This document shows positions 4,084 through 45,942 of a stretch of 50,145 nt of DNA, piece by piece (position 1 is the stretch's first letter; every line of letters starts with the position of its first letter). Source of the stretch: a virus (lineage: Duplodnaviria > Heunggongvirae > Uroviricota > Caudoviricetes). The notes below the pieces were generated by a model. That model was not told where the DNA came from. It did no database searches and saw only the letters and a program-made list of their open reading frames with translations. Position numbers and translations under genes: made by a program. The stretch lies in IMG/VR virus record IMGVR_UViG_2579778539_000003; one strand, 5' to 3'.

Positions 4084-4659
4084 CTACGGCAGTGCTGGCC
4101 ATTCAATATCCTGTGCAGTTGACGTATCAACACGGTTCAGCAATACCCGATACTTTTTCCATGCTTCCAGCAACGAGATTTCTTCCTCCGTTGCAATTTC
4201 CAGATCTGCAGCATCCTGAAGCGGCGCAATATGCTCACTGGCTACCTGCATCAGGTTGTTTTTTGTTTCTTCCGCCTCCCGGATCCGGAACAGTTTTTCT
4301 GCTTCCGTATCCTTCACCCAGGCTGTGCCGTTCCACTTCTGAAACTCCCCTTCCGGCGATAACCAGGTAACATTTTTCGGTAACGGACCGAGTTCAGAAA
4401 TAAATAACGCGTCGCCGGAAGCCACGTCATAAACCGTTTTACCCCGATGATCTTCAACGAGATGCCACGATGACTCATCACTGTTGAAAACAGCCACGAA
4501 GCCAGCCGGAATATCTGGCGGTGCAATATCGGTACTGTTTGCTGGCAGACCTGTATGAGGCGGAATATATGCATCACCTTCACCAATAAATTCATTAGTT
4601 CCGGCCAGCAGATTATAAATTGTTATGGTCCGTGGTTGTTCACTCATTCTGAATGCCAT
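4084..4659 (-). CDS. tfaQ: Tail fibre assembly chaperone Tfa
   Basis: 191-aa [23 protein letters not shown]...; start ATG overlaps stf true-frame stop (TAATG). Confidence 0.9.
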
Positions 4660-7600
4660 TATGCAAGCCTCACAATATAGTTAAATGCGATGTTTTTGAC
4701 GGTGTTTTCCGCGTTACCAGCAGCGTTAACGGTGATGGTGTGTCCATGTGAGCCAATCGCAACGGAGTGCGTATGAGCACCAATACCGACAGTATGTGCG
4801 TGTGCACCTGCGCTTGCAGAGTACCCGATACAGAGTGCGTATGAGCGCCTGCAGAAGAAGTGTTAACACTGTATTTAGAATAATCAGGTGATCCACTTCC
4901 CGGAGCACCACTGGAACCACCTGAAACAAATGTCATCGAATGGGTATGTGCACCGGCTGAAGCAGCCGTACCGCTAACACTATGGGTATGTGCACCAGTG
5001 TTATTCGTGGATTTAGTGCCGTAATCAAACGATGATGTGGTTTTCGTCCCCAAATCCGTACTGGATGCGCTGGCGCTGTGGGTGTGCGATTTAATGCCGT
5101 CCTGTTCCTGAGACAATACGGCACGACCACTGGCGGGCTTGCCCTTAATCGTCCAGCCACGCATATCAGGAATAACGCCTGACGGATAAGCCACTGCAAG
5201 TTTCGGGTATGCAGATTTGTCAAAAGTCTGCCCCTGCATCAGGGCATAGCCAGACGGAACGGTATCTGATGGCCACGGGATTGGTGCGCCGACTGGGTAG
5301 CTTTCTGGTGGAAGATTTTTCGAGGTATAAACTTCTGCCCAGTCATCCTCAAAACCATAACCGTCTCTTGAAGAACGGTAGAACAGACCACCATTTCTGT
5401 AATGCGCCTTCATCTGCAGGGTCCGGCAACTTCCGACTCCGGTATAGAAGTTAACCAGAATATAGCTGTCGCCAGAGCGAGTGACATTGTAAGCGCCTGA
5501 TTCGGCATTCCATGGAACGCCACCATCCGCATCGGCATATGTATCCGTTGCCCTTCTGGCAAAAGCAGCCACATGCGCGGCGGTTAAAGTAATATCTTTG
5601 GAACCATCAAACTCAACACCAGAAACCCGTCTTGGCGTTTGCAGCTTTGTTGCTGTTAATGCATTACCGTTCAGACTTGCGGACAGTTTGGTTCCAATAA
5701 CCAGTTCGCCGGTTGCGTTATCAATAGCAAACGGTCTTAATGTATTCCAGCCACCATAAACATCACCTTGATTGGTAAGCAGCAGGTAAGTTTTAGCGCC
5801 ATCATTACGCCATAATGCACCATACTCTCCACCTATCATTCGAATCTGATTACCACCACGCGCTACAATTTCGTCTGTGGCAAAAAGTTTTTTGCACGAC
5901 AAGTTATCGTTAACGATTAACGAATGAGACTCATAAAAACCACGCCCACTCTTAAAATCAAGGATAACGTCCGCCGCGATACATTCAGTCGCTGGATTTG
6001 TTGCCCCAAACTTATAGGTCGTATCATTAACAACGAGATCAGCACCAGGTGCGGATATTGACAGGCCATCTTCGATAAACGCAAAAACAGGGAAAGCAGC
6101 GCCATCAACATAGAACACAGAGCGCAAATCATCGCCCTTATTACTCATCATTATTGAGTGGATGGCTCGTTCATTGTTTTGATATTGCCAGAACATTCCA
6201 TAAGCATAACGCCCCCTGTCAGTCCAGCCACCAGGCATAACAAATCCGTTAAACTCGCAGTTATTCATCGGATCGCCTGCGGTTCGCGTTGCCGTGGTGA
6301 TAATGACCCTTGATGCCAGTTCGCTTACTGAGCCAGCAGAACGCATAACAACAACAGGGTAATATTTTCCAGATGTTGCACCTGCAGGAGCGTTAACCCG
6401 CACATAACGCATACCACGCTTATCAGCAAAGTCTGTTTTACTGACCGCGTTAATGTTGTTCAGGAAGCGTCCCTTATCGGGTATATCAGTGCCGTTCTGG
6501 TCTTTCTGCAGACGTTTCTCTGCATTGTCATAGGCTGATTTTACTGCCTTTGGCGTTGCCGCCAGCGTTTCAGACGTACTGTTGGTCGCACTGCTGAGCT
6601 GTACTATCCCCTTTTTCGTCGTGCTCGCATCCTCAAGCGCCACGGCGGATGCAATATCCTCTGCCCGTTTTGCTGCTGTCTCGGCGCGCGTTGCCGCGGA
6701 TTCCGCCGTACTTTTGCTCTGAGCTGCCGCCGTCGCACTGCCAGCTGCCTATGTCGCCTTCGTGGATGCCGTCGTGGCGCTGCCCTTCGCTGCTGACGCC
6801 TGTCTGGTCGCCTCATCTTTTGAAGCAGACGCCGATGATGCCGATGACGCCGCCGAACTGGCGGACGATGCGGCAGCCGTTTTTGAGGATTCTGCGCTGG
6901 TTTCCGACGCTTTCGCGTTCGTTTCGGATGTCTTCGCTGCGGAAGCAGACCTCGCTGCTGCGCTGGCCTGTTCAGTGGCTTCGCCAGCCTTCGTTGTGGC
7001 TGTTGAAGCAGACGATGCGGCGCTTTCTGCCGATTTTCCGGCGGCGGTGGCACTGGCTGAGGCCTGCCCGGCACTTGTTGACGCTGCACTGGCAGACGAC
7101 GCAGCCGCTGTTTTTGAGCCTGCCGCAGCCGAGGCGCTCTGTCCCGCTGCCGTTTCAGAAGACCTGGCGTTCGTCTCGGACGTTTTTGCCGCCTTCGCGG
7201 AAGTTCCTGCCGCTGTTGCCGAGGAGGCTGCACGACTGGCGCTCGAGGCTGCGCTCGTTTCTGATGATTTTGCCGCCTCTTTTGAAGCCGACGCATCCCT
7301 GGCTGAGGTGGCAGCTTCTGACGCTTTCGTGGTCGCGGTGGATGCAGAAGTGGCGGCTGATTGTTCTGACGCTGCCGCATTCGTTTCTGACGTTTTCGCC
7401 GCACCGGCACTGGTAGCCGCCGCGCTTTTTGAGGACTCTGCAGCGGCAGCACTTTTTGAGGCTTCAGTGGCCTTTGTTGATGCCGTTCCTGCGCTGGAAG
7501 ACGCTGACTGAGCCGACGACGCGGCCTGTCCGGCTGACGTGCTGGCTGCACGTGCTGAATCTGCAGCATCAGTCGCACGGGTTGCCGCCTCACTGGCAGA

Positions 7601-19747: not shown

Positions 19748-20101
19748 TCAGCGGCGACGGTTAACGGCAGGCGGTACGCCCCGTCCAAGCCAGAGATGAC
19801 AACTTCCGCCATCATCCGGCGAAACCCGATCTACCCAGAAATTTTCCTCACCGATGGTCAGCGTGTCTCCACGCCGCAGCTGCCGCACCTCATCAGTCCG
19901 GACAAACAGGGACGGGCTGGAGCCTTCAACGCGCACGCCCTGTCCGGCATAGCTGATATTTTCAGGGTCATCAAAAACACCACGTATCACAGCACCGGAC
20001 TGCTCACCGGATGTCATGGTGGCTGACGTTCCCATGTACCCGCGTATCGTTTCATCGGCGCGGGCAATGGCAGCATCGAACAGGTTATCGAAATCAGCCA
20101 C
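19748..20101 (-). CDS. FII: Head-tail joining protein FII
   Basis: 117-aa lambda gpFII-like ORF. Confidence 0.9.
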   Translation of the reverse strand: MADFDNLFDAAIARADETIRGYMGTSATMTSGEQSGAVIRGVFDDPENISYAGQGVRVEGSSPSLFVRTDEVRQLRRGDTLTIGEENFWVDRVSPDDGGSCHLWLGRGVPPAVNRRR

Positions 20102-20112
20102 AGCGCCTCCCG

Positions 20113-20511
20113 TTATTGCATTCTGGCCAGGCCGCGCGCTGTCATTTCAGCTGACACACCGGCAGAGACACGAAACGCCGTTCCCGGCAGCACAAATGCC
20201 ACAGGTTCATCCCGCGTGGCGTGAAGTGCATCAGTATGCAGCGTCACCAGTGCCACGACCGTGACCAGTTCAGACGTATCCAGAATCACGGTATCCGGCT
20301 GCGCTGATCCCACCTCATTTTCATGTCCGGTCAGCACATTTTCCCGGCTGAGAGGGGTGTCCTGACCGGCAGTTTCATCCGTGTCATCAAGCTCCTCTTC
20401 CAGCTCTGCCACACGGAGCGCCAGTTCTTCTTTCGTCCCCGTCAGGCTGACATCACGGTTCAGTTGTTCACCCAGCGAGCGGAGACGGGCAATCAGTTCA
20501 TCTTTCGTCAT
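20113..20511 (-). CDS. FI: DNA packaging protein FI
   Basis: Start set at internal ATG (MTKDELIARLRSLGEQ...), 132 aa. Confidence 0.85.
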   Translation of the reverse strand: MTKDELIARLRSLGEQLNRDVSLTGTKEELALRVAELEEELDDTDETAGQDTPLSRENVLTGHENEVGSAQPDTVILDTSELVTVVALVTLHTDALHATRDEPVAFVLPGTAFRVSAGVSAEMTARGLARMQ

Positions 20512-20552
20512 GGACTCCTCCACAGAGAGAAAATGGCCCCGAAGGGCCATGA

Positions 20553-21578
20553 TTACGCCAGTTGAACGGCCACGAACTCATCAGGATCAGCCAGCAGCAT
20601 CAGCGGTGCTGACTGAATCATGGTGAACTCTCGCGCCGGATCGCCGGATGTCTTCCAGTTTTTCGGATAACGGGGAGACGCATTAATACCCTCACTCAAT
20701 GCATCCGCATCCTGAATACAGCCATAGGTGCGCAGACCGCGTGCATGAGTGTTACCCAGCACCATCGTGTTGTCCGGCAGGAAGTTCTTTTTGACGCCGT
20801 TTTCCACGTACTGTCCGGAATACACGACGATGGCCACATCGCCATACATCCCCTTATAGGACACCGCTTTACCCAGGTCTTTCACCGCTGTCTCCAGCTC
20901 GGAATGAGAGCCACGACGGGTATCCAGCTTCTCCCTGACGGCTTTGAAGGAACGGAACAGCGCCCAGCCTTTCGGATCGAACACGATGATATTCACCACA
21001 CCGCTGGCGTTCAGCGCGTAGGCTTCGATATCGTCGGTCGGGTCATACGTGGACTTGTCACGCTTGCTCCACTCCGTGCTGCCGGACTGCGTGATGTTAT
21101 TCTCCTCACTGCGGCCCATATCCACCTCAACCGGATCGAAGGCTTCACCGGTCATGGTGTATTTGCCCTTAAGCACGGCAGAAACTGCCTGCATCTCTTC
21201 GACCTGAGCAATGGCCAGCTCTTCGTCACGCATGTTCTGCATGATGATGCGACGGCGGCGGTAAGCCGGGTCCGCCAGATTCTGCGGATCTTCATCCGGC
21301 AGGCGACGCAGGGTCATCTGCGGATTCACTTCATGCTTCGGCTTGACATATCCCGGCGTAAATTCAGAGGTGGAGCCGCCACGGGAACGGATAACCTCAC
21401 CGGAAACAATCGGCGAAACGTACAGCGCCATGTTTACCAGTCCCGGAATTTGTGAGAGATAGACTTTCTCCGTGGTGAAGGGATAGCTCTCACGGAAAAA
21501 GAGACGCAGAAACAGCGGATCAAACTTAAATTTCTGCTCATTTGCCGCCAGCAGCTGGGCGGTTGTGTACATCGACAT
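20553..21578 (-). CDS. E: Major capsid protein E
   Basis: Start at MSMYTTAQLLAANEQKF...; 341 aa; lambda gpE-like. Confidence 0.95.
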   Translation of the reverse strand: MSMYTTAQLLAANEQKFKFDPLFLRLFFRESYPFTTEKVYLSQIPGLVNMALYVSPIVSGEVIRSRGGSTSEFTPGYVKPKHEVNPQMTLRRLPDEDPQNLADPAYRRRRIIMQNMRDEELAIAQVEEMQAVSAVLKGKYTMTGEAFDPVEVDMGRSEENNITQSGSTEWSKRDKSTYDPTDDIEAYALNASGVVNIIVFDPKGWALFRSFKAVREKLDTRRGSHSELETAVKDLGKAVSYKGMYGDVAIVVYSGQYVENGVKKNFLPDNTMVLGNTHARGLRTYGCIQDADALSEGINASPRYPKNWKTSGDPAREFTMIQSAPLMLLADPDEFVAVQLA

Positions 21579-21633
21579 AAAAAAATCCCGTAAAAAAAGC
21601 CGCACAGGCGGCCTTTAGTGATGAAGGGTAAAG

Positions 21634-21966
21634 TTAAACGATGCTGATTGCCGTTCCGGCAAACGCGGTCCGTTTTTTCGTCTCGTCGCTGGCAGCCTCC
21701 GGCCAGAGCACATCCTCATAACGGAACGTGCCGGACTTGTAGAACGTCAGTGTGGTGCTGGTCTGGTCAGCAGCAACTGCAAGAATGCCAACGGCAGCAC
21801 CGTCGGTGGTGCCATCCCACGCAACCAGCTTACGGGTGGAGGTGTCCAGCATCAGCGGGGTCATTGCAGGCGCTTTCGCACTCAATCCGCCGGGCGCGGT
21901 TGCGGTATGAGCCGGGTCACTGTTGCCCAGCGGCTGGTAATGGGTAAAGGTTTCTTTGCTCGTCAT
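21634..21966 (-). CDS. D: Head decoration protein D
   Basis: Start at [12 protein letters not shown]...; 110 aa; lambda gpD-like. Confidence 0.9.
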
Positions 21967-21975
21967 AAACATCCC

Positions 21976-22581
21976 TTACACTGGTGTGTTCAGCAAATCG
22001 TTAACGGCATCAGATGCCGGGTTACCTGCAGCCAGCGGTGCCGGTGCCCCCTGCATCAGACGATCCAGCGCAGTGTCACTGCGCGCCTGTGCACTCTGTG
22101 GTGCTGCGGCCAGAATGCGGCGGGCCGTTTCCACGGTCATACCGGGGGTTTCTGCCAGCACGCGGGCCTGTTCTTCGCGTCCGTGAGCCTCCTCACAGTT
22201 GAGGATCCCCATAATGCGGCTGTTTTCTGCCGCAACCGCTGCGGTGATCTGCGCGTTCACGTCCGGCTGCGCCGCGCTGGCGTTTTCGCCCTCCGTCGCT
22301 GGCACCACGTCAGTAACGTCAGCCTGCGAAGCAGTGGCTGAAACAGTTGTTGATTGAGTCTCTTTGGTCATTCGCCCTCCTGAGAGACGGGATTTACGTG
22401 CATCCAGTGCATCACGCATGACGGTGATCGCATCGGTGCTGTTAACAAGTTCATCAGCCAGTCCGGCATCAATGGCCTCCTGACCGCTGTACACTGCAGC
22501 CTCGGTATCCAGCACAGCCTGCACGGACAGGCCGGTATATGCCGACACCTTCTGCGCAAACATCTGGCGGGTTGCGTCCAT
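21976..22581 (-). CDS. nu3: Scaffolding protein Nu3 (in-frame internal start within C)
   Basis: ATG at 22579-22581, 201 codons upstream of the C stop, matching the lambda Nu3 arrangement. Confidence 0.6.
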   Translation of the reverse strand: MDATRQMFAQKVSAYTGLSVQAVLDTEAAVYSGQEAIDAGLADELVNSTDAITVMRDALDARKSRLSGGRMTKETQSTTVSATASQADVTDVVPATEGENASAAQPDVNAQITAAVAAENSRIMGILNCEEAHGREEQARVLAETPGMTVETARRILAAAPQSAQARSDTALDRLMQGAPAPLAAGNPASDAVNDLLNTPV

Positions 22582-23275
22582 CCGGGACTGCAGTGTCTCC
22601 CGGACGTCATCCGGAAGATGGCTGTAGGGGTTGCCATCCACCTTATGGCTGCCGCTGTAAATCAGCGTGATTTCCACACCCTGTTTCTCCAGCGCAGCAC
22701 CGTAATTACTGTGAGCCATCATGACGCCGATGGAGCCTGTCCGGGCGGTCTGCGTGACCAGACGCCGGGAGGCGGCACTGGCAAGCAACTGACCTGCACT
22801 GCAGTTCATGTCGTTGGCAAGCGCCCATACCGGTTTTATGTCACGCACACGGGCGATGATGTCAGCGCAGTCAAATGCCCCCGCCACCATCCCGCCGGGC
22901 GTGTCCATATCGAGCAGAATGCCGTCCACCATCGGATCGCTGGCAGCCTGTTGCAGACGGGCGATAATGCCGTTGTAACCGGTCATCCCCGAGTACGGCT
23001 GCAGCGCCCGCGTCCGGCTGACCAGCGTGCCGGACACCGGCAGCACGGCGATGCCGTTCATGACCTGATAACTGCGGGCCTGTCGTGGTCCGTCATCATC
23101 ACCGGATAATGCCAGCGTCGCGAGTGCCTCCTGGGCAGGCAGGCTGTCGCCGGACACCGCATCCGTCAGGCGGCTGATCCCAAGCTGGCCTGCAAGCGCA
23201 CAAAAGAAAACCCGCGCATAGGCGGGTTCAAGCATCAGCGGCTCATTAAAGGCCATGCTGGCAATATGCGGGAGA

Positions 23276-23295
<20 letters not shown>
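21976..23295 (-). CDS. C: Capsid maturation protease / scaffold C
   Basis: 439 aa from GTG at 23295 preceded by AGGAGGAG; overlaps B 3' end by 20 nt as in lambda. Confidence 0.9.
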
Positions 23296-26976
<3,681 letters not shown>

Positions 26977-27002
<26 letters not shown>

Positions 27003-27522
27003 TCAGCAACCCCGGTATCAGTTCATCCAGCGCGGCTGCTTTGTTCATGGCTTTGATTATATCCCGTTTCAGGAAATCAACATGTCGGTTTTCCAGTTCC
27101 GGAAAACGCCGCTGCACCGACAGGGGGATCCCGTCGAGAATACTGGCAATTTCACCTGCGATCCGCGACAGCACGAAAGTACAGAATGCGGTTTCCACCA
27201 CTTCAGCGGAGTCTCTGGCATTTTTCAGCTCCTGTGCGTCGGCCTGCGCACGCGTAAGTCGATGGCGTTCGTACTCAATAGTCCCTGGCTGGAGATCTGT
27301 CTCGCTGGCCCGCCGCAGTTCTTCAACTTCCCGGCGCAGCCTTTCGTTCTCAATTTCAGCATCCCTTTCGGCATACCATCTTATAACGGCGGCAGAGTCA
27401 TAAAGCACCTCATTACCCTTGCCACCGCCTCGCAGAACGGGCATTCCCTGTTCCTGCCAGTTCTGAATGGTACGGATACTCGCACCGAAAATGTCAGCCA
27501 GCTGCTTTTTGTTGACTTCCAT
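26977..27522 (-). CDS. nu1: Terminase small subunit Nu1
   Basis: 181-aa ORF MEVNKKQLADIFGASIRTIQNWQEQG...; overlaps A start. Confidence 0.95.
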
Positions 27523-27750
27523 TGTTCATTCCACGGCCAAAAACAGAGAAAGGAAACGACAGAGGCCCAAAAGTTCGTTTTCAGCACCTGTCGTTTCCTT
27601 TCTTTTTAGGGGGTATTTTAAATAAAAACATTAAGTTACGACGAAGAAGAACGGAAACGCCTTAAACCGGAAAATTTTCATAAATAGCGAAAACCCGCGA
27701 GGTCGCCGCCCCGTAACCTGTCGGATCACCGGAAAGGACCCGTAAAGTGA
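27523..27750. other. cos site (cosB-cosN-cosQ); cosN 12-nt cohesive end AGGTCGCCGCCC at 27700-27711
   Basis: Reverse complement of lambda left end GGGCGGCGACCTCGCGGGTTTTCGCTATTTATGAAAATTTTCCGG... present immediately upstream of Nu1. Confidence 0.85.
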
Positions 27751-27910
27751 TAATGATTATCATCTACATATCACAACGTGCGTGGAGGCCATCAAACCAC
27801 GTCAAATAATCAATTATGACGCAGGTATCGTATTAATTGATCTGCATCAACTTAACGTAAAAACAACTTCAGACAATACAAATCAGCGACACTGAATACG
27901 GGGCAACCTC

Positions 27911-28144
27911 ATGTCAACGAAGAACAGAACCCGCAGAACAACAACCCGCAACATCCGCTTTCCTAACCAAATGATTGAACAAATTAACATCGCTCTTGAG
28001 CAAAAAGGGTCCGGGAATTTCTCAGCCTGGGTCATTGAAGCCTGCCGCCGGAGACTGTGCTCAGAAAAAAGAGTTTCTTCTGAAGCAAACAAAGAAAAGA
28101 GTGACATTACTGAATTGCTCAGAAAACAGGTCAGACCAGATTGA
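27911..28144 (+). CDS. ynfO: YnfO-like small protein with ribbon-helix-helix-like N-terminal region
   Basis: 77-aa ORF; RNIRFPNQMIEQINIALEQKGSGNFSAWVIEACRRRL resembles Arc/MetJ/CopG RHH fold pattern. Confidence 0.7.
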   Translation: MSTKNRTRRTTTRNIRFPNQMIEQINIALEQKGSGNFSAWVIEACRRRLCSEKRVSSEANKEKSDITELLRKQVRPD

Positions 28145-28186
28145 AGCAATTTAGATAATCGTGCAGACTACGCCCCCTCATATCAC

Positions 28187-28612
28187 ATGGAAGGTTTATC
28201 TATGGATCAGGTAGTCATTTTTAAACAAATATTTGATAAAGTTCGAAACGATTTAAACTATCAATGGTTTTATTCTGAGCTAAAACGTCACAATGTCTCA
28301 CATTACATTTACTATTTAGCCACAGAGAATGTTCATATTGTATTAAAAAATGATAATACAGTGTTATTAAAGGGCCTAAAAAACATTGCGTCTGTCAAAT
28401 TTTCAAAGGATAGGCATCTTATAGAAACGACCTCTAATAAGCTGAAATCCAGAGAGATCACATTTCAGGAATACAGAAGAAACCTTGCTAAAGCAGGAGT
28501 TTTTCGGTGGGTTACAAATATCCACGAACAAAAAAGATATTACTATACCTTTGATAATTCATTACTATTTACTGAAAGCATCCAGAAAACTACACAGATC
28601 TTACCACGCTAA
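28187..28612 (+). CDS. ydfO: YdfO-like DUF1398 protein
   Basis: 141-aa [38 protein letters not shown]...; 43 nt downstream of ynfO. Confidence 0.8.
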
Positions 28613-28763
28613 ACCATAACGTCCGGCTTCTCTCACTCCTGAGCCGGACTGCATTGGTTTAATAAAAACCATCAACAATTGTGATTTAGATATTCGGAAC
28701 CATTCAAATATAACAAAACCCCGTAAAAACGAGGTTTATGGATAAATTTTATTATTGAATACA

Positions 28764-28937
28764 TCAGATTAAATTAATCTTGACATCATAGCTTTCAAGA
28801 CCCGTCATTTTTTCCCGTGCGGTAAACTGAATACTGGTAACTTCTTTCCCGGTCTTTTTCTTAAGTTCAATAATTTTTTTTGTTATATATTCAGAAATAT
28901 CTGCTTCTGCTTTTGTTTTTAAGTTTTCAATATTCAT
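28764..28937 (-). CDS. gnsB: GnsB (GnsA/GnsB family small protein)
   Basis: 57-aa MNIENLKTKAEADISEYITKKIIELKKKTGKEVTSIQFTAREKMTGLESYDVKINLI; AAGAGGAA SD; not in ORF track (<60 aa). Confidence 0.75.
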   Translation of the reverse strand: MNIENLKTKAEADISEYITKKIIELKKKTGKEVTSIQFTAREKMTGLESYDVKINLI

Positions 28938-29108
28938 CATTTCCTCTTTTAGTCTGTTATGACTTTCCAGTTACACAGTAAGTCGATTATATGGTGCAAA
29001 CGTGTAAAAGATAAGATGAAACATCGCAATAATCAACATACGATAGTCTAAATTTTACACAAACAGACAAAGAGAATTTTCCTGAATTATCAATGCAATA
29101 GCATCAAA

Positions 29109-29339
29109 TCAACTCAAGAGCCTTATTGCTGCTTCCAGAATTTCTTCTGAAGTAACATGTCGATCCGCGGCTACATAAATGACTTTATGATCTCCGGTCA
29201 GAGATGGAAACCCTGCGGCCATTACAGTAAGGTGTGTTTTTTCGCCATTTGGATATTCACGCATGATGGTGTTAACTCCAGTCATCGCTGGCACTACCAC
29301 TGCTGGTTCAGAGTTAAAAAAAACTATGATTTTTTTCAT
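29109..29339 (-). CDS. ynfN: YnfN-like small protein (YmcE paralogue; start taken at MKKII)
   Basis: Directly upstream of gnsB on the same strand; ORF track extends to a TTG at 29381 that lies inside a terminator hairpin. Confidence 0.6.
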   Translation of the reverse strand: MKKIIVFFNSEPAVVVPAMTGVNTIMREYPNGEKTHLTVMAAGFPSLTGDHKVIYVAADRHVTSEEILEAAIRLLS

Positions 29340-29383
29340 GATGTTACCGTAGTATGTGAGTATCCATCGAATAGACACCAAGC

Positions 29384-29403
29384 AAAAAAGCTCCCGAAGG
29401 AGC
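29384..29403 (-). terminator. Rho-independent terminator between cspI and ynfN
   Basis: GCTCC-CGAA-GGAGC hairpin followed by U6 on the minus strand. Confidence 0.4.
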
Positions 29404-29610
29404 CTTCATTTTCACTTTTTTAAATCCAACGACAGACGGCTGGCATTTAAGTATTGTGAAATATTATCAAATGTAATCATCATTGATTTACAAAAGATAC
29501 ATTTTGCCCCGAAAGGATTCATGTCAGAAACATCAAAAGATGATGTTCTATACTGGGAACCATGACAACACGGGCATCTAAAGTGAATATGGTTTGTAAT
29601 ATTGTCTACC

Positions 29611-29823
29611 TCAAAGCGCCACTACATGAACAGCGGCAGGACCTTTAGGTCCGTTCTCAATACCAAATTCAACTTCCTGATTCTCAGTTAATGTTTTGAA
29701 ATCGTTGCTCTGAATTGCTGAGAAATGGACAAACACATCTTTGCTGCCATCTTTCGGCGTGATGAAACCAAAACCTTTTTCAGGGTTAAACCATTTCACT
29801 AAACCAGTCATTTTGTTAGACAT
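29611..29823 (-). CDS. cspI: Cold-shock protein CspI
   Basis: 70-aa CspA-family [26 protein letters not shown]... Confidence 0.9.
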
Positions 29824-30185
29824 AATTATTACCTTTTGAAGAAATTAGCCCTTGGGCAGAATGGTCCGAAAAAAAATATCAGAGAGAAAAACCAACAAGG
29901 AAATCTCAAGAGGTACAAATAATAAAATTATAACAATGACTGCTTCAGATAAATTTGTAACAAACCAGAACACCATTAACGCATGATTAACCACCCATAG
30001 CAAGGATTACTTTTGTAAAGAAAAACACAGCAATGAAAGAATAGCTTTATTTATTAATAAAACGTGTCATTCTGATTAAGACCTTTTATCTTACCCTTAA
30101 GATTTCAGGAATTTTGGCTCATGGAAGAGTCCTTTTTATTTAAATTTTACATTCCGCGATGTAAATGTTCCGATTTAATATTACC

Positions 30186-31209
<1,024 letters not shown>

Positions 31210-31213
<4 letters not shown>

Positions 31214-31521
31214 AGATATTTATGATGAGGACGCTCGTGCTTATTGGCAGGATTTTCAATCTTAAAGGAGTACTGATGCTGCAGATAAGACTCAACTTTT
31301 TCTGACAATTTTTCTGCTACTTCCAGGAAGACTTGCCGGACGCTCCTTCTGGCTGCTGCCTCATAAAACTCCAGCGCAGCTCCTTCAACACGGTCCATGG
31401 CGACATCCAGGTCAAAAATTTCACCGTCAAAGCGTTCTTTGTCCTGTAAGGCTACAGTTACCGTAACTTTATTCTCAAAATTACGGACTCCTTTCACAAC
31501 CAGTTCATAGTCTTGAGTCAT
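31210..31521 (-). CDS. ydfR: YdfR-like protein (DUF1327) between holin and endolysin
   Basis: 103-aa ORF; stop overlaps endolysin start. Confidence 0.7.
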
Positions 31522-31525
31522 TGGA

Positions 31526-31741
31526 TTACTCTCCTCTCGCAGCCTTACGCCTGTCTTCTTTAATCTTGAAATAAAGATTTGTCAGATACGTCAGCAGGCC
31601 AAAAACCAGGCTACCCAGCACACCGATTGCAGCCCACTGTGACGGAGTTACTTTATCGAGTAACTGCAATGCCCAGAAACCAGCATTACCCGCCGATGTG
31701 CCATAGGCAACACCTGTTGTTAACTTATCCATTGATTTCAT
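31526..31741 (-). CDS. essQ: Phage-21-type pinholin S with dual-start motif MKSM
   Basis: [26 protein letters not shown]...[30 protein letters not shown] closely resembles S21; two TM segments. Confidence 0.85.
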
Positions 31742-31960
31742 ATCCTCACCCCGATGTACACGGATGGTGCAATATGTTTGAAAAGATCGGAGTCTACGGG
31801 GTAGTTTTGACAGCACACGTTGTTCTCAACGGCGCTAAAAAAACATACACATTAAAAATGTGGGTAATTATTTTGAAAGAAAGTCATATATAAAATAATA
31901 ATACGAGAAATGTTTTCATATTTAGTGTACTGTATACGGCCATTTATACAGGAAAAGCCT

Positions 31961-32131
31961 ATGTCAGAACGTAAAAACTCAAAATCACGCCGTAATTATC
32001 TCGTTAAATGTTCCTGCCCAAACTGCACCCAAGAGTCAGAACACAGTTTTTCAAGAGTACAAAAAGGTGCCCTTTTGATCTGCCCTCATTGCAACAAAGT
32101 ATTCCAGACAAATCTTAAAGCTGTAGCCTGA
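31961..32131 (+). CDS. Small zinc-ribbon protein (CPNC...CPHC), possibly YnfQ/YmcF-like
   Basis: 56-aa product from MSERKNSK...; AGGAAAAG RBS; followed by hairpin terminator near 32195-32215. Confidence 0.5.
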   Translation: MSERKNSKSRRNYLVKCSCPNCTQESEHSFSRVQKGALLICPHCNKVFQTNLKAVA

Positions 32132-32494
32132 TTGATTTTATTAGTAACAAGTATTTTTTATATTTTAATAATATATTTAAAGCAGATAATAAAAAACCCG
32201 CCTGAGCGGGTTTGAGATTGTGGTGCTTTTTGTGGGAGTCATCCACTTACGCACTTTGTTTTGCCATGCCAGCAGTTAGCTTCTGCTGTAAAACTATTCA
32301 TGCAGCAAACCTGCACTTCACCACAATGGTTAGCATACTTTTCCTGATTAAGATTTTGCCAAATATGCTAGCCATTGTTTCATGTATTGGACCTCCTTAC
32401 TTTTTATTAAAGAGATCCAATATTCACTACTCTGTCCGTATCTCTACTCAGGCATCAGCCTTCTTCGTTATCGTATACAGACGAGCGATGAATT

Positions 32495-32710
32495 TTAATC
32501 AGTAATGATGACATTTGCTGCTGCAGGACCTTTAGCACCACTCTCTATAGAGAAGGTAACCTTTTGACCTTCAAATAAGGTTCGATAATTATCATTCTGA
32601 ATCGCAGAAAAATGCACAAACACATCTTTACTACCATCAACAGGAGAAATAAAGCCGAAACCTTTATCAGCGTTAAACCATTTTACTAAACCAGTCATTT
32701 TATTTGACAT
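32495..32710 (-). CDS. cspB: Cold-shock protein CspB
   Basis: 71-aa CspA-family ORF. Confidence 0.9.
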
Positions 32711-33010
32711 TCTACATTCCTTAACTTGAGCCTTTCGGCATAAATGGTTTGCATAACAGAAACGACTTCGTACTTAATTGGAGAGACTCAAAGAAGGAAT
32801 AAGTGAATAACACCTGAAATGAGAACTGCTTTAGTAAACTACTTCGTATATCGTCTGTTCTTCAAACCGACGCAATCATTAACGCATAGTTGAACATATG
32901 AAGCAATGTTTATTTTAGACATCCAGCCATCTTCAACCCCATCAAAAAACTATAGCTTTCTTCAGGAACGTGTGTATAGTGCGCCAAGTTATCAGTATTA
33001 AGGAATTTTT

Positions 33011-38149: not shown

Positions 38150-39765
38150 ACATTAGCATAGGCTATTTACCATAACGCCTCATTACGCGCACCGCCCAGA
38201 CTGACTCAGCGCGTTTCTGGCATATCCCCGGTAAAACAAGTAACAAACCACCCGAAAATGAACACCAGAAACGCGACTTAAGAATCTACCCTATGAATGG
38301 ATATGCACTCAACCGAATCGATCTTGGTTTCAATCTTTTTTATCGGGATCAGGCTTCTTTTTAGGTAACTTCGGGGGCTTAACTTGCTGATGACTTTGCG
38401 TTCGGCGCGTAAGCCAGGGATGGTCAGCTTTAGGTTTAACATAGTATTTTGAGCGTAAATCAATACGGGCATTATCCACTCGTTCATGGACACTCTTTTC
38501 ATCATCCAGTGGTATAGGCTCCGGGCCATCAACATACTTTTCCCAGCCCAGCGCTTTCCCGTCATACAGAACGTTAATTTCACCGTCAAAGTTCTCGCAT
38601 ACAGTAACAACCGAATGCCTAAGTCGATATCCCCGGCCCTCACTGCGTACCTGAAACGCACTGCTTTTGTACTGGAAAGTGAGATTTTTAGACAGAACGC
38701 GCTTCGCCTGTAGGCTGAAGATATAACCCAGTTCCTCTTCAGAATGGTGCACATCAAGATGAGCATTATCAGTAGTACGAGGCGACGTAGCGAACCGGTT
38801 GTTATAGGCTTCAATAAAGGTCGGCAACCATGCATTTGCTGTTTCAATATCACTGATATTCTGAAGCCGCATTTCTTTGACCAGCCTGTCCTGTAGTGTC
38901 TGATTGGCGCGCTCTACCCGCCCTTTTGCCTGCGGGCTGTTGGCATGGATTGGCTCGATGCCCAGTGTCTTTATCGCACGAGTGAACTGGGTCAGCTCAC
39001 CTTCCCGCTCTGGGTTATTTACCCTGAATATACTGTGTCTATCAGAGTAGAGAGCGAGCGGTACGCCATGATCATTAAGGTAACCCCGGAGGGTTTCCAT
39101 GTAAGCCCGGGTTGTTTCAGCAGGCACAAAACGCAACGCCATCAACGCACTGGTGGCATCATCAATGAAAACGATCAGTGTACATCTGGGGCCTCGATTT
39201 TCAAACCAGTCATGAGGTGAGCCATCAATCTGGATCAGTTCACCGTAAGATGGTCGTCGCATGCGGCGTTGATATATACGGGCAATTTTACGACGGCGTT
39301 CACGCCATAACCCCTCTTCTATCATCCACTTTCTGAGAGTTTCAACGGATAAAGATAAACCGTGTATCTCGCGCAATTTTTCGCACGCAAACGTAGGTCC
39401 AAAATCAGCGTAACGGCCTTTGAGGAGTGAAATTACTGTTGCTCTGAATTCAGTAGAAAAGGAATTATTAGGACGCTTTCCACGTCGGTGGGAAACCAGA
39501 CCAGAAGGCCCTTCATTTCTATACCGTTGCACCAGACGTTTAACCTGCCGAATAGAAATGCCAATGCGTGCCGCAGCTTGTTCCTGAATAATCTGAAGTC
39601 GGTGGAGTTCCTTATGACTCATCGTAACAGTCTCTTTGATCATGAAAAATCCCCCAGAGAATTGTCTGGGGACATTTTAGAATGGTTCAAAGGGGACATT
39701 ACAGCTTGGTGTTAACAATAGCCTGCTTCTCCGTGCCTTTCGGCACGTAAGAGGCTAACCTACAT
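38150..39765 (-). mobile_element. Putative single-ORF IS element (IS481-like); boundaries approximate
   Basis: Encodes a DDE/rve transposase; ends only tentatively placed from weak terminal similarity (TAGG...GCCTC.TTACG.G). Confidence 0.4.
38330..39643 (-). CDS. DDE-type (rve integrase-core) transposase with N-terminal HTH
   Basis: 437-aa ORF; HTH GISIRQVKRLVQRYRNEG; core IQIDGSPHDWF...VFIDDATS...SDRHSIF...; Lys-rich C-terminus. Confidence 0.8.
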   Translation of the reverse strand: MIKETVTMSHKELHRLQIIQEQAAARIGISIRQVKRLVQRYRNEGPSGLVSHRRGKRPNNSFSTEFRATVISLLKGRYADFGPTFACEKLREIHGLSLSVETLRKWMIEEGLWRERRRKIARIYQRRMRRPSYGELIQIDGSPHDWFENRGPRCTLIVFIDDATSALMALRFVPAETTRAYMETLRGYLNDHGVPLALYSDRHSIFRVNNPEREGELTQFTRAIKTLGIEPIHANSPQAKGRVERANQTLQDRLVKEMRLQNISDIETANAWLPTFIEAYNNRFATSPRTTDNAHLDVHHSEEELGYIFSLQAKRVLSKNLTFQYKSSAFQVRSEGRGYRLRHSVVTVCENFDGEINVLYDGKALGWEKYVDGPEPIPLDDEKSVHERVDNARIDLRSKYYVKPKADHPWLTRRTQSHQQVKPPKLPKKKPDPDKKD

Positions 39766-39977
39766 GTGTCTAGCATGAAATTGGCCTCAGATTAATGTTA
39801 AGCGTCTTGCAGGACGCGTAATGTTAACTGGGGCTTTTCTCTATCTGCCGTTGGTGTCCATGCCCGAGGCAGATAGCCTCAAGCACCCGCAGTCATTCTA
39901 CTTAACTAAGATTTCCCCGCAAACCGTTTTTGTCCAGCACAGTAAATATCCAACTAAACCAATGGAGTTCGCTGTAT

Positions 39978-43890: not shown

Positions 43891-44298
43891 ATGGAAACAA
43901 AAAATTTAACTATCGGCGAACGCATCAGGTATCGTCGGAAAAACCTCAAACACACCCAAAGGTCTCTTGCTAAAGCCCTGAAAATCTCCCATGTGTCTGT
44001 ATCACAATGGGAACGGGGTGATAGTGAACCTACAGGGAAGAACCTTTTTGCCCTCAGCAAAGTATTGCAATGCTCACCAACATGGATTCTATTTGGCGAT
44101 GAAGACAAGCAACCAACACCACCTGTTGAGAAGCCAGTTGCCTTATCCCCCAAAGAACTAGAGCTCCTTGAGCTGTTTAATGCACTGCCAGAATCAGAAC
44201 AGGATACCCAGCTCGCCGAAATGCGAGCTCGAGTAAAAAACTTCAATAAACTCTTTGAAGAATTACTAAAAGCCCGTCAGCGGACAAATAAAAGATAA
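43891..44298 (+). CDS. dicA: DicA (CI-like HTH repressor)
   Basis: 135-aa METKNLTIGERIRYRRKNLKHTQRSLAKALKISHVSVSQWERG... Confidence 0.9.
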   Translation: METKNLTIGERIRYRRKNLKHTQRSLAKALKISHVSVSQWERGDSEPTGKNLFALSKVLQCSPTWILFGDEDKQPTPPVEKPVALSPKELELLELFNALPESEQDTQLAEMRARVKNFNKLFEELLKARQRTNKR

Positions 44299-44464
44299 CA
44301 TCATCAATGAGTTATCTTTTACCACATCAATTATGTTAGCTATAGCATACAAAATCACTTGACCGATATGTTAGTCATGGCTAATCTTGTTTGCATCAAC
44401 ACACCGCACGGTGTTCTCAGCAAACAGTTCCGCTACCCCAGCGTTAAGGGGAAATGAGGTCAGC

Positions 44465-44620
44465 ATGGATACTATCGATCTTGGCAACAACGAATCTCTG
44501 GTGTACGGCGTGTTTCCAAACCAGGACGGCACGTTCACCGCAATGACGTATACCAAAAGCAAAACGTTTAAAACCGAAAATGGTGCCCGTCGCTGGCTGG
44601 AAAGAAACTCAGGTGAGTGA
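44465..44620 (+). CDS. ydfA: YdfA small protein
   Basis: 51-aa MDTIDLGNNESLVYGVFPNQDG...; GAGG RBS; ORF track extends upstream. Confidence 0.7.
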   Translation: MDTIDLGNNESLVYGVFPNQDGTFTAMTYTKSKTFKTENGARRWLERNSGE

Positions 44621-44621
44621 T

Positions 44622-44750
44622 ATGGATTTCGACACAATCATGGAAAAGGCTTACGAAGAATACTTCGAAGGCCTTGCCGAAGGCGAAGAAGCTCTCAGCT
44701 TCAGTGAGTTTAAACAGGCGCTTTCCAGTTCGGCAAAATCTAACGGCTGA
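44622..44750 (+). CDS. ydfB: YdfB small protein
   Basis: 42-aa MDFDTIMEKAYEEYFEGLAEGEEALSFSEFKQALSSSAKSNG; 1 nt after ydfA stop; not in ORF track. Confidence 0.65.
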   Translation: MDFDTIMEKAYEEYFEGLAEGEEALSFSEFKQALSSSAKSNG

Positions 44751-44779
44751 TAAGCGAAACAGCACCGCGAGGAATCAGT

Positions 44780-44998
44780 ATGCAGAAACGAGAACCCGTC
44801 ATCATCGCGCCAGACTATACCGATGATGAACTTTATGAGTGGATGCGCCAGAAAATTAATGCAGCGCAGGATCTGAAATGGGCTAATGAAGCCAGGGCTA
44901 AGCAGGCTGAAAATCTGTCCGCTCTGGAGCAGGATATCACCAATCTGGAAAAAGCAGCGGCATTAAGCATTGCCAGAATGATTACATACCCGCGTTAG
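44780..44998 (+). CDS. ydfC: YdfC small protein
   Basis: 72-aa MQKREPVIIAPDYTDDELYEWMRQKIN... Confidence 0.7.
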   Translation: MQKREPVIIAPDYTDDELYEWMRQKINAAQDLKWANEARAKQAENLSALEQDITNLEKAAALSIARMITYPR

Positions 44999-45337
44999 TA
45001 GCTAATCAACAAAGCTAAGGTTAGTAATTAAGGAGTTCTCCACGGGTGAGGTGGAGTGCGTGCGCCGGACACGGGTGCGCATCCGGAACTGACAGTTTAC
45101 TGAAAGGATATTTCCCTGAAAAGTCAGACCATAACGCGAAAGCGCACGGCGAGGTAGCTGGTTCATAGATAGCCTGTCGTTAAATTTTCGTCGACCGTGC
45201 GCTTCCGGTTGTGGCAACCCGCGAAATGGCGCGGCGGTAAGTATGGCGGGGTTATTCCTTCCCCGTTGAGGACACCGGGTTGTCAGGTTGACCATACGCT
45301 TAAGTGACAACCCCGCTGCAACGCCCTCTGTTATCAA

Positions 45338-45396
45338 TTTTCTGGTGACGTTTGGCGGTATCAGTTTTACTCCGTGACTGCTCTGCCGCCCTTTTT
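45338..45396 (+). ncRNA. dicF: DicF sRNA (ftsZ-targeting, processed from the ydfABC-dicF-dicB transcript); ends approximate
   Basis: TTTCTGGTGACGTTTGGCGGTATCAGTTTTACTCCGTGACTGCTCTGCCGCCCTTTTT matches DicF including the terminator hairpin GGCGG...CCGCC plus T-run. Confidence 0.75.
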
Positions 45397-45565
45397 AAAG
45401 TGAATTTTGTGATGTGGTGAATGCGGCTGAGCGCACGCGGAACAGTTAAAACCAAAAACAGTGTTATGGGTGGATTCTCTGTATCCGGCGTTAATTGTTA
45501 ACTGGTTAACGTCACCTGGAGGCACCAGGCACTGCATCACAAAATTCATTGTTGAGGACGCGATA

Positions 45566-45754
45566 ATGAAAACGTTATTACCAAACGTTAATACGTCTGA
45601 AGGTTGTTTTGAAATTGGTGTCACTATCAGTAACCCAGTATTTACTGAAGATGCCATTAACAAGAGAAAACAAGAACGGGAGCTATTAAATAAAATATGC
45701 ATTGTTTCAATGCTGGCTCGTTTACGTCTGATGCCAAAAGGATGTGCACAATGA
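45566..45754 (+). CDS. dicB: DicB cell-division inhibitor
   Basis: 62-aa MKTLLPNVNTSEGCFEIGVTISNPVF...; GAGGA RBS. Confidence 0.85.
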   Translation: MKTLLPNVNTSEGCFEIGVTISNPVFTEDAINKRKQERELLNKICIVSMLARLRLMPKGCAQ

Positions 45755-45942
45755 ATTCAGCATTTGTGCTTGTTCTGACAGTTTTTCTTGTTTCCGGAGA
45801 GCCAGTTGATATTGCAGTCAGTGTTCACAGGACAATGCAGGAGTGTATGACTGCAGCAACCGAACAGAAAATTCCCGGTAACTGTTACCCGGTCGATAAA
45901 GTTATTCACCAGGATAATATCGAAATCCCGGCAGGTCTTTAA
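45751..45942 (+). CDS. ydfD: YdfD small membrane (lysis-associated) protein
   Basis: 63-aa MNSAFVLVLTVFLVSGEPVD...; ATGA overlap with dicB stop. Confidence 0.75.
   Translation: MNSAFVLVLTVFLVSGEPVDIAVSVHRTMQECMTAATEQKIPGNCYPVDKVIHQDNIEIPAGL

Follow-up and report, generated by a model that had tools for sequence, protein, structure and literature searches.

A conserved pseudoknotted RNA fold upstream of DicF in a Qin-type lambdoid prophage, a possible portable scaffold for small RNA processing

The untranslated tract between ydfC and the small RNA (sRNA) DicF was analyzed in a 50,145-nucleotide (nt) stretch of a Qin-type lambdoid prophage (IMG/VR record IMGVR_UViG_2579778539_000003; the whole stretch is referred to as the window). 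The 3′ part of this tract forms a conserved fold of about 115 nt, a cloverleaf-like four-way junction with a pseudoknot, which is backed by covariation and which, combined with the same type of terminator, carries at least a dozen different seeds in other prophages and in phage P1. We put the probability at about one half that this fold is a portable precursor scaffold framing sRNA processing. The tract as a whole is best explained as an untranslated leader that links ydfABC with DicF on the transcript of the early-left (dicBF) operon, and as composed of three layers: lineage-specific hairpins (44999-45128), a long hairpin (45129-45214), and the conserved fold (45208-45322). Processing of the tract was already known; the conserved fold, its spread to phage P1 and seven enterobacterial genera, and its position as the front end common to sRNAs of variable seed appear to be new. 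DicF itself is one of the oldest known bacterial sRNAs; it is present in roughly 80% of complete E. coli genomes, in some of them as several copies, and it affects virulence in enterohemorrhagic E. coli.

The elements of the fold are as follows, helices being written “helix P1,” P2, P3, and P4 to keep them apart from phage P1.

45208-45322, plus strand: the entire fold, a cloverleaf-like four-way junction with a pseudoknot, about 115 nt, corresponding to K-12 1649251-1649365; covariance model R1 scores it at 161.6 bits, and 18 of its 36 pairs show compensatory changes.
45208-45215 (GUUGUGGC) with 45315-45322 (GCUGCAAC), plus strand: closing helix P1; seven of eight pairs changed on both sides.
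45219-45234, plus strand: hairpin P2, CCGCG-AAAUGG-CGCGG (stem 45219-23/45230-34); 95.6% of cells paired.
45236-45276, plus strand: arm P3, with outer pairs GGU/ACC (45236-38/45274-76) and inner stem CGGGG/CCCCG (45247-51/45261-65).
45241-45246 with 45292-45297, plus strand: pseudoknot, GUAUGG of the P3 internal loop with CCAUAC of the P4 loop; 99.6% of cells paired.
45277-45313, plus strand: arm P4, GGGUUGUCA (45277-85) with UGACAACCC (45305-13) and a 19-nt loop; six of nine pairs compensatory.
45323-45338, plus strand: AU-rich single-stranded linker of 16 nt, which holds the RNase E site for the DicF 5′ end (between ..AUCAA and UUUUC..).

Linkers of only 3, 1, 0, and 1 nt connect helices P1 to P4 at the junction. 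In the related loci L168 and L188 (L numbers denote such loci throughout) helix P1 is built from quite different but complementary sequences, and P2 shows one compensatory change (CCGCA/UGCGG in L179) besides several G-U wobbles. The inner P3 stem is the most variable in sequence, with pairing kept in GC, CG, AU, and UA types, whereas the outer GGU/ACC pairs are invariant and are uninformative for covariation because they never vary. Six base pairs connect the internal loop of P3 with the loop of P4. A single position among them covaries, from U-A to C-G; the change is seen in phages P1 and P7 and, as a separate event, at lambdoid locus L235, and L034 and L047 have the U-G intermediate. P4 is replaced by GGGUAACCA/UGGUUACCC in Izhakiella and by GGAUCACCA/UGGUGAUCC in L188, while its loop bases AGGUUGACCAU.CGC are invariant. 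The P3 loop, UUAUUCCUU, is rich in pyrimidines (C and U) and resembles an anti-Shine-Dalgarno sequence. A second, H-type pseudoknot between the P3 loop (UCCUU) and a following GAGGA was considered and rejected, GAGGA being absent from phage P1, Erwinia, Izhakiella, Trabulsiella, and the L016 type.

A previous inspection of the letters alone (the sequence-only reading) had proposed that an independent structured RNA might lie here, which the covariation of these 115 nt bears out, and had quoted three stems. One of these, GGGTTGTCA/TGACAACCC, is present within the range it gave, at 45277-45285/45305-45313, and another, CCGGA/TCCGG, at 45065-69/45082-86. The third, GGTTG-TGGC-AACC, can likewise be found (45207-45219), but its GGTTG/CAACC pairing is not conserved, other copies having CAATC or CACTC. 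That reading missed the pseudoknot, the four-way junction, and the link to phage P1.

Covariation was assessed on two alignments. When 72 distinct sequences are simply aligned with MAFFT, 95.4% of the cells pair and 12 of the 36 pairs have changed on both sides; the corresponding shuffle control gave 4.0 ± 1.6 such changes, and none of 500 shuffles reached the observed 12. Covariance model R1 was built and 45 more diverse sequences were realigned to it, which raises the compensatory pairs to the 18 listed above, with 94.9% of cells paired as against 32-55% with slid partners; an alignment fitted to a model leans towards that model, and the R1 figures are to be read with this in mind. The signal comes mostly from P4, helix P1, and the inner P3 stem (three of five pairs compensatory), and it is seen in five of the six helices, the outer P3 pairs being the exception. 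Since the search patterns fixed parts of two loops, the bases of these loops cannot be called conserved from the scans alone; the BLAST matches to phages P1 and P7 are independent of the patterns. Each locus has exactly one R1 match, with none elsewhere in the window, and no Rfam family matches the fold at E ≤ 10.

The idea that the stems arose by chance in a slightly GC-rich spacer, whose only function would be to link ydfC to dicF, draws on the folding energies, whose z-score is -2.67 for 44999-45400 (2 of 100 shuffles as good) and only -1.06 for the core alone, and on the lack of covariation in the 5′ 130 nt; composition and folding energy by themselves are weak evidence, and the tract would not stand out on them. 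The sequence-only reading had called the interval GC-rich, which holds in that the tract (53.3%) exceeds the window average (49.9%), but modestly so, the core reaching 58.6%. With covariation in five of six helices, occurrence in seven genera and phage P1, and a position that does not vary with respect to the sRNA modules, the chance explanation is very improbable; it is refuted for 45208-45322 and possible for parts of 44999-45128.

The relation of the fold to DicF follows from published processing data. Two species are on record: a 190-nt “long DicF,” which RNase III produces by cutting about 137 nt upstream of DicF, which is not seen when that enzyme is missing, and whose 5′ end maps between +813 and +814 on the dicBp transcript; and the 53-nt DicF, which needs RNase E (Ragunathan et al. 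2023, bioRxiv 10.1101/2023.04.14.536235); the two confirm Faubladier et al. 1990, as cited there. They bear out the earlier suggestion that the interval is a substrate for RNase III or RNase E. If 190 nt are subtracted from the DicF 3′ end (45391 with its U tail), or if +813 is counted off from the dicBp start as predicted (-10 TAATCT, 44382-87), the RNase III end falls by arithmetic at about 45202-45208, within the GGUUGUGG duplex at the foot of helix P1 and 0-6 nt before it. The RNase E cut lies at 45338/45339, 16 nt after helix P1. As both published cuts flank it by this arithmetic, the conserved fold forms the 5′ domain of long DicF: the known 190-nt molecule (Faubladier et al. 1990 as cited; bioRxiv 10.1101/2023.04.14.536235) consists of the layer 45208-45322, the 16-nt linker, and DicF, and its extra 137 nt are, by the same arithmetic, filled by the fold.

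The literature on long DicF treats this upstream part as an untranslated spacer, to which the present analysis adds the structure, the pseudoknot, the link to phage P1, and the other seeds. In the DicF literature covered, which excludes Faubladier 1990 and Faubladier and Bouche 1994, neither the structure of the fold nor its conservation outside E. coli is described; searches on the exact fold sequences, on DicF together with putL, and on RNAs of the phage P1 ban operon gave nothing relevant in a coverage that excludes the Łobocka 2004 P1 genome paper. Two other identities were discarded. The prophage sRNA svsR belongs to a different locus, the 3′ end of cI; a self-cleaving ribozyme does not fit the loss of the 53-nt species upon RNase E inactivation, and no ribozyme family matches.

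The layers of the tract and the elements next to it are these.

44999-45338, plus strand: untranslated ydfC-DicF tract, a 340-nt gap.
44999-45128, plus strand: 5′ part of the tract, with lineage-specific hairpins including GUGCGCCGGA...UCCGG (45065-69/45082-86) and CUGA-AAAG-UCAG.
45129-45214, plus strand: long hairpin, the likely RNase III substrate, as found in the minimum-energy fold of 45125-45330; its apical part is variable.
45339-45391, plus strand: DicF sRNA (seed and intrinsic terminator), a 53-nt RNA starting at 45339; Rfam RF00039 matches 45340-45391 at 76.7 bits; annotated in K-12 and phage Tritos.
45399-45550, plus strand: long-range stem AGUGAAUUUUGUGAUG/CAUCACAAAAUUCAUU, a perfect 16-nt duplex (45399-45414 with 45535-45550) upstream of dicB, the complementarity being read from the sequence.

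That the interval is noncoding, as claimed from the sequence, was confirmed: the ydfC stop codon is at 44996-44998, DicF begins at 45339, and the plus-strand open reading frames (ORFs) overlapping the tract are of 40, 36, and 29 amino acids only, below the 60 that had been given as the limit. Rfam was scanned at gathering thresholds across the entire window and, with E ≤ 10, across 44700-45700; in this neighborhood only DicF, a sub-threshold STnc100 match downstream, and noise were returned, and no family for the tract; the match to the RF00039 model is restricted to 45340-45391 with none in 44999-45338. The tract is upstream precursor sequence, not DicF itself. The cotranscription with DicF which had been proposed also stands. 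A promoter scan of 44250-45800, tract included, gave no plus-strand promoter-like site, and primer extension and reverse transcription PCR revealed no internal promoter; ydfABC-dicF transcripts were seen, and no longer read-through species (bioRxiv 10.1101/2023.04.14.536235). The tract is in this respect a 3′UTR-derived or intra-operonic sRNA precursor, processed by RNase III as well as by RNase E and cotranscribed without a promoter of its own.

Coupling of the fold to what follows it is tight. The sequences downstream fall into 16 clusters, every one of which starts with the 3′ strand of helix P1, usually CCACAAC, followed by 11-56 variable nt, a hairpin (U)UGGCGG...CCGCC, and a U run; an adjacent sRNA plus terminator is found in 14 of the 16. 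One of these modules is DicF and the others, judged by sequence, are DicF-like sRNAs with different seeds. Automatic terminator detection missed obvious terminators (e.g., the L013 type), and upon rechecking by eye only L168 and L188 truly have no terminator nearby. At L002 (3100-3260) seed and terminator are present as a tandem duplicate behind a single copy of the fold. The L002 record is named as an Actinobacillus phage; its sequence at the fold matches enterobacterial lambdoid loci.

Part of the tract, searched as a 341-nt query, occurs in 4326 of 5426 complete E. coli genomes (~80%), and the 5′ limit of homology is mosaic, lying at query position 1, 21, 43, 61, 121, or 210 depending on the genome or phage. 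Among the phages of the collection, wide recurrence is limited to the final ~100-130 nt (query 210-332), and query 221-317 is 77-82% identical to a stretch in phages P1 and P7. The fold is carried by lambdoid phages, by P1/P7, and by 511 plasmid records, mostly P1-like; prophage copies were found in Escherichia, Shigella, Citrobacter, Serratia symbiotica, Trabulsiella, Erwinia tracheiphila, and Izhakiella. The pattern scans covered viral contigs and one genome per species, and about half of the genome-scan matches (Smithella, Anaerolineae, Mycobacterium, and others) were chance pattern matches without the rest of the fold and were discarded. In phage P1 the fold starts ~36 nt past the start site of the C1-repressed Pban promoter and overlaps an annotated “dicF-like region”; a strong terminator comes next, and beyond it lie tRNA genes, tciABC, and ban. 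The whole P1 unit would be a primary transcript of ~175 nt.

Upstream of the fold conservation is of another kind. The sequences there form 22 different clusters, and the stems of the 5′ ~130 nt are kept within the E. coli type with no compensatory changes. Structure that is conserved beyond the E. coli lineage is confined to the last ~195 nt of the tract. The 5′ strand of the long hairpin consists of CCAUAAC (45129-35) and GCGCACGG (45142-49), the 3′ strand of CCGUGCGC (45195-45202) and GGUUGUGG (45207-14). Every lambdoid variant possesses a CACAAC-type box (CCAUAAC in the window) which, with more complementary bases, pairs with the GUUGUGG strand around a variable insert. When upstream sequence is included in the prediction, the minimum-energy fold has GGUUGUGG paired to CCAUAAC, and P2-P4 still form; when it is omitted helix P1 forms. 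As GGUUGUGG can pair with either the upstream box or GCUGCAAC downstream, GUUGUGG has two mutually exclusive partners.

Two further features of the upstream region were observed. The 5′ half of the RNase III hairpin, 45133-45165 (CAUAACGCGAAAGCGCACGGCGAGGUAGCUGG), is a diverged repeat of P2 and the following junction (45217-45249); L011, L054, and L139, which are without the 5′ strand of helix P1, look like deletions between these two repeats. In eight variants outside the E. coli type a boxA-like UGCUCU(C/U)U stands 6-7 nt before the fold. The motif was noted at loci L152, L153, L149, L047, L032, L013, and L143 (38 nt before GGUAAG), in several non-E. coli variants 6-7 nt before GUUGUGG, and in several of these it recurs after the terminator, 217-283 nt after GGUAAG; its equivalent in the window is UGCGCUUCC (45197-45205). 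The arrangement before the fold recalls rrn and lambda, where boxA is followed by a GU-rich boxC. It seems to be the pairing rather than boxA that is conserved, because the boxA-like bases sit in a duplex which differs complementarily in the E. coli type.

These elements may be combined as follows. Before RNase III acts, GUUGUGG would be paired with the upstream CCAUAAC box; cleavage at the foot of the duplex would free it to close helix P1 with GCUGCAAC, and we infer a helix switch. The compact, pseudoknotted fold could insulate the seed and the AU-rich linker from pairing with upstream sequence, leaving the linker alone single-stranded, and RNase E would then be directed to cut at one defined place and would release DicF with a 5′ monophosphate, whatever the seed. 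The scaffold reading would explain why scaffold, seed, and terminator always come in one order, why seeds are swapped, and why the two cuts lie where they do.

Several points weigh against it. A fold of such elaboration is not, to our knowledge, a normal requirement of RNase E. The invariant loop and junction bases (GGCGGUAAG, AGGUUGACCAU, and CGC) point to a specific partner which the scaffold model does not name. The 5′ strand of helix P1 is missing, with the rest kept, in phage P1, L002, L011, and L054/L139. At L168 and L188 the fold has neither an adjacent sRNA nor a terminator; it lies mid-way in a structured leader of ~880 nt, which is preceded by a good sigma-70 promoter, and the next element after the fold is a further bracketed module. 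Lastly, in the minimum-energy fold of the 190-nt RNA the element GGCGGUA forms a competing pairing with the 3′ strand of the DicF terminator. That this pairing is the cause of the conservation of GGCGGUA is probably not so, phage P1 keeping the element though its terminator is unrelated. Because the scaffold leaves the elaborate invariant loops and the L168/L188 arrangement unexplained, two rival explanations are kept open.

The leader of L168 contains a module (5394-5481) that shares 81.5% identity with a stretch left unannotated in the virulent Limestone-like phages of Dickeya (e.g., LIMEstone1 128907-128997), which may represent a further undescribed phage noncoding RNA.

The first rival holds that the fold is the functional RNA itself, a tRNA-like mimic or a protein- or RNA-binding domain persisting as a ~135-nt fragment after RNase E removes DicF, the sRNA being merely a neighbor; its role could be to titrate a host factor, to recruit one, or to bind a Shine-Dalgarno sequence through the CU-rich P3 loop, which usually has UCCUU or CCUCC. 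The loops and junctions of the fold are more conserved than its stems, the pattern of partner-binding RNAs, and the linkers correspond to cloverleaf topology; the four-way junction, the short linkers, and the tertiary contact between the P3 and P4 loops amount to a resemblance to tRNA, not to membership. L168 and L188 show the fold on its own, and at L179 a tRNA-like module just upstream resembles helix P1 and the base of P4. ARAGORN, however, found no tRNA or tmRNA in the window or in eight related loci (L179 not among them), the Rfam tRNA model had no match at E ≤ 10 in 44700-45700, and no consistent CCA follows helix P1. The published northern blots used DicF probes (bioRxiv 10.1101/2023.04.14.536235), and the sRNA coupling in 14 of 16 downstream clusters also speaks against a mere neighbor. 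We regard an independent RNA as a tentative possibility.

The module at L179 (4506-4632, minus strand) scores 40.1 bits with the Rfam tRNA model and has a 69-nt insertion; its acceptor stem GUUGUGGUG/CACCACAGC and CCG flank are what resemble helix P1, and its T arm CCGGGUU..CCCGG the base of P4. T-arm-like sequences (GGUUCGAUUCC, GUCCGUUCAAUUCGGAC) occur as well in the upstream inserts of L047, L152, and L153. The L179 module suggests that the fold may have originated from a tRNA. A bolder and rather doubtful extension makes it a tRNA-derived cloverleaf mimic, a launch pad from which phages would use host tRNA processing to make 5′-monophosphate sRNAs of interchangeable seed. RNase III or an RNase P-like activity would enter on the 5′ side and RNase E would make a trailer cut on the 3′ side; the fold may also be a sensor or decoy which, through its invariant loops and the anti-Shine-Dalgarno-like P3 loop, would set the balance between sRNA and read-through into toxic dicB/kil. 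RNase E starts the processing of tRNA 3′ trailers in E. coli. In murine herpesvirus 68 (MHV68), tRNA-miRNA (TMER) units consist of a tRNA-like fold fused to pre-miRNAs and are cut by tRNase Z, and 3′ETS-leuZ is an sRNA from a tRNA trailer. The likeness to these lies in a cloverleaf-shaped fold directly before a small RNA, an RNase E cut between the two, and a constant scaffold with variable payload; the fold differs in that it goes unrecognized by tRNA detectors, has longer anticodon- and T-like arms, is locked between the P3 internal loop and the P4 loop, and lacks CCA. If the tRNA-mimic proposal were true, the unit would be a bacterial counterpart of the herpesvirus TMERs.

The second of the rivals kept open has the fold control the DicF terminator, and thereby the choice between sRNA and read-through into dicB/kil and the recombination genes, as a riboswitch-like element or a put/nut-like antiterminator. 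Its architecture is that of an aptamer: four-way junction, pseudoknot, invariant junction bases, and stems that vary and covary are all observed, and no Rfam riboswitch family matches. An intrinsic terminator lies 30-120 nt downstream in nearly all cases, in phage P1 the fold stands between Pban and the strong terminator preceding the tRNA genes and ban, the operon is of a type without a recognizable N protein, and the boxA-like motif precedes the fold in the eight variants noted above. CCCCGCC at the 3′ edge of the fold can in some variants pair with GGCGG of the terminator 5′ strand. On inspection by eye, this CCCGCC/GGCGGG pairing could form in the L002 type, was only weak in the DicF type, and was lacking in L047; it does not appear to be kept across variants, and a classical terminator/antiterminator covariation was rejected as inconsistent. 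In vivo, transcripts end at the DicF terminator, and because no longer read-through species is reported the terminator appears to be effective even behind the fold (bioRxiv 10.1101/2023.04.14.536235). The boxA-like bases, as stated, lie in a duplex with complementary change. The put RNAs of HK022, which like the present fold are structured cis RNAs in the early operon of a lambdoid phage without N protein, upstream of terminators, differ in being V-shaped, ~70 nt long, made of two stem-loops with a triplex, and located after both PL and PR; the fold is of 115 nt, has a four-way junction and pseudoknot, and occurs once per phage, and R1 matches nothing in the HK022 immunity region (20000-32000). 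Control of termination is accordingly judged unlikely.

The remaining rival, that the minus-strand 111-codon ORF encodes the “hypothetical protein” annotated in several phage records, is scarcely credible: the ORF exists, but it has a TTG start, is frame-shifted or truncated, mostly by 1-nt indels, in 16 of 33 distinct homologs (≥90% identical, all but one ≥96%), has no Pfam match at E ≤ 1, loses homology to other phages at various internal points, and bears substitutions that preserve RNA base pairs and not codons. It is an artefact of a GC-rich structured RNA, as had been supposed from the sequence, and is effectively refuted as a gene.

45002-45337, minus strand: the 111-codon TTG ORF, not a gene; broken in homologs and without a Pfam family.

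The portable scaffold may also be compared with other processed RNAs. Long-range duplexes likewise bracket structured units in the RNase III stems of rRNA operons, and in some variants boxA-like and GU-rich motifs adjoin the stems; rRNA operons differ in the scale and the products of their duplexes, and the boxA-like motif here is putative. The C4 (RF01695) RNA of P1/P7 and IsrK (RF01394) are early-operon RNAs cut by host RNases as well, and phage P1 carries both systems; they differ in that they are processed by RNase P and act antisense within their own operon, and neither family matches the tract. IsrK and C4 antisense RNAs, an immI-like module, were detected at L085 1171-1359, L054 4732-4920 (minus strand), and L013 5052-5240. 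At L085 and L054 they lie 300-400 nt downstream of the fold on the same strand, and early operons of this type carry several processed RNAs in series.

Downstream of DicF, the long-range stem at 45399-45550 is, from its complementarity, probably the RNase III site that makes the 3′ end of the 72-nt DicF species known from the literature. The spacer between DicF and dicB (45389-45598) resembles Salmonella STnc100, at 34.4 bits here and 42.4 in L179, the gathering score being 47. In the Erwinia, Izhakiella, Trabulsiella, Serratia, and L047 variants the terminator loop carries a Shine-Dalgarno sequence and an AUG/GUG mini-ORF (MFYRGTA.., MFCR..; L152 4713, L153 2569, L149 1952 minus strand, L136 6590 minus strand, L047 1385 minus strand). 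The first codons of the mini-ORF are the 3′ strand of the terminator, which suggests that its translation should melt the terminator and lead to translation-coupled read-through.

The region 43.5-48.5 kb of the window comprises the immunity and early-left region of the prophage, in this gene order:

dicC, minus strand: first in order, beside dicA.
43891-44298: dicA.
ydfA and ydfB: between dicA and ydfC.
44780-44998: ydfC, stop codon 44996-44998.
45567-45754: dicB, downstream of DicF.
ydfD, then an intact 835-amino-acid recE-like gene: after dicB.

In RefSeq K-12 and phage Tritos no feature is annotated between ydfC and dicF. The other Rfam matches in the window are all on the minus strand, namely IS009 at 220.9 bits, a pair of cspA thermoregulator leaders at 112.8 and 158.8 bits, and, at 104.1 bits, a sok antitoxin RNA; the four lie at 4118-4316, 29584-29969, 32479-32871, and 39717-39888.

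The 137 extra nt of long DicF, on gels since 1990 and taken as spacer, are thus a conserved pseudoknotted fold. It offers a mutable structure for studying the maturation of prophage sRNAs and the choice between the sRNA and a toxic downstream gene, and it is a candidate new Rfam family for which a working covariance model is at hand. Searches with the scaffold, rather than with the variable sRNA itself, could find new prophage sRNAs. If it does prove to be a context-independent processing scaffold, it would provide a natural part for synthetic sRNA expression.

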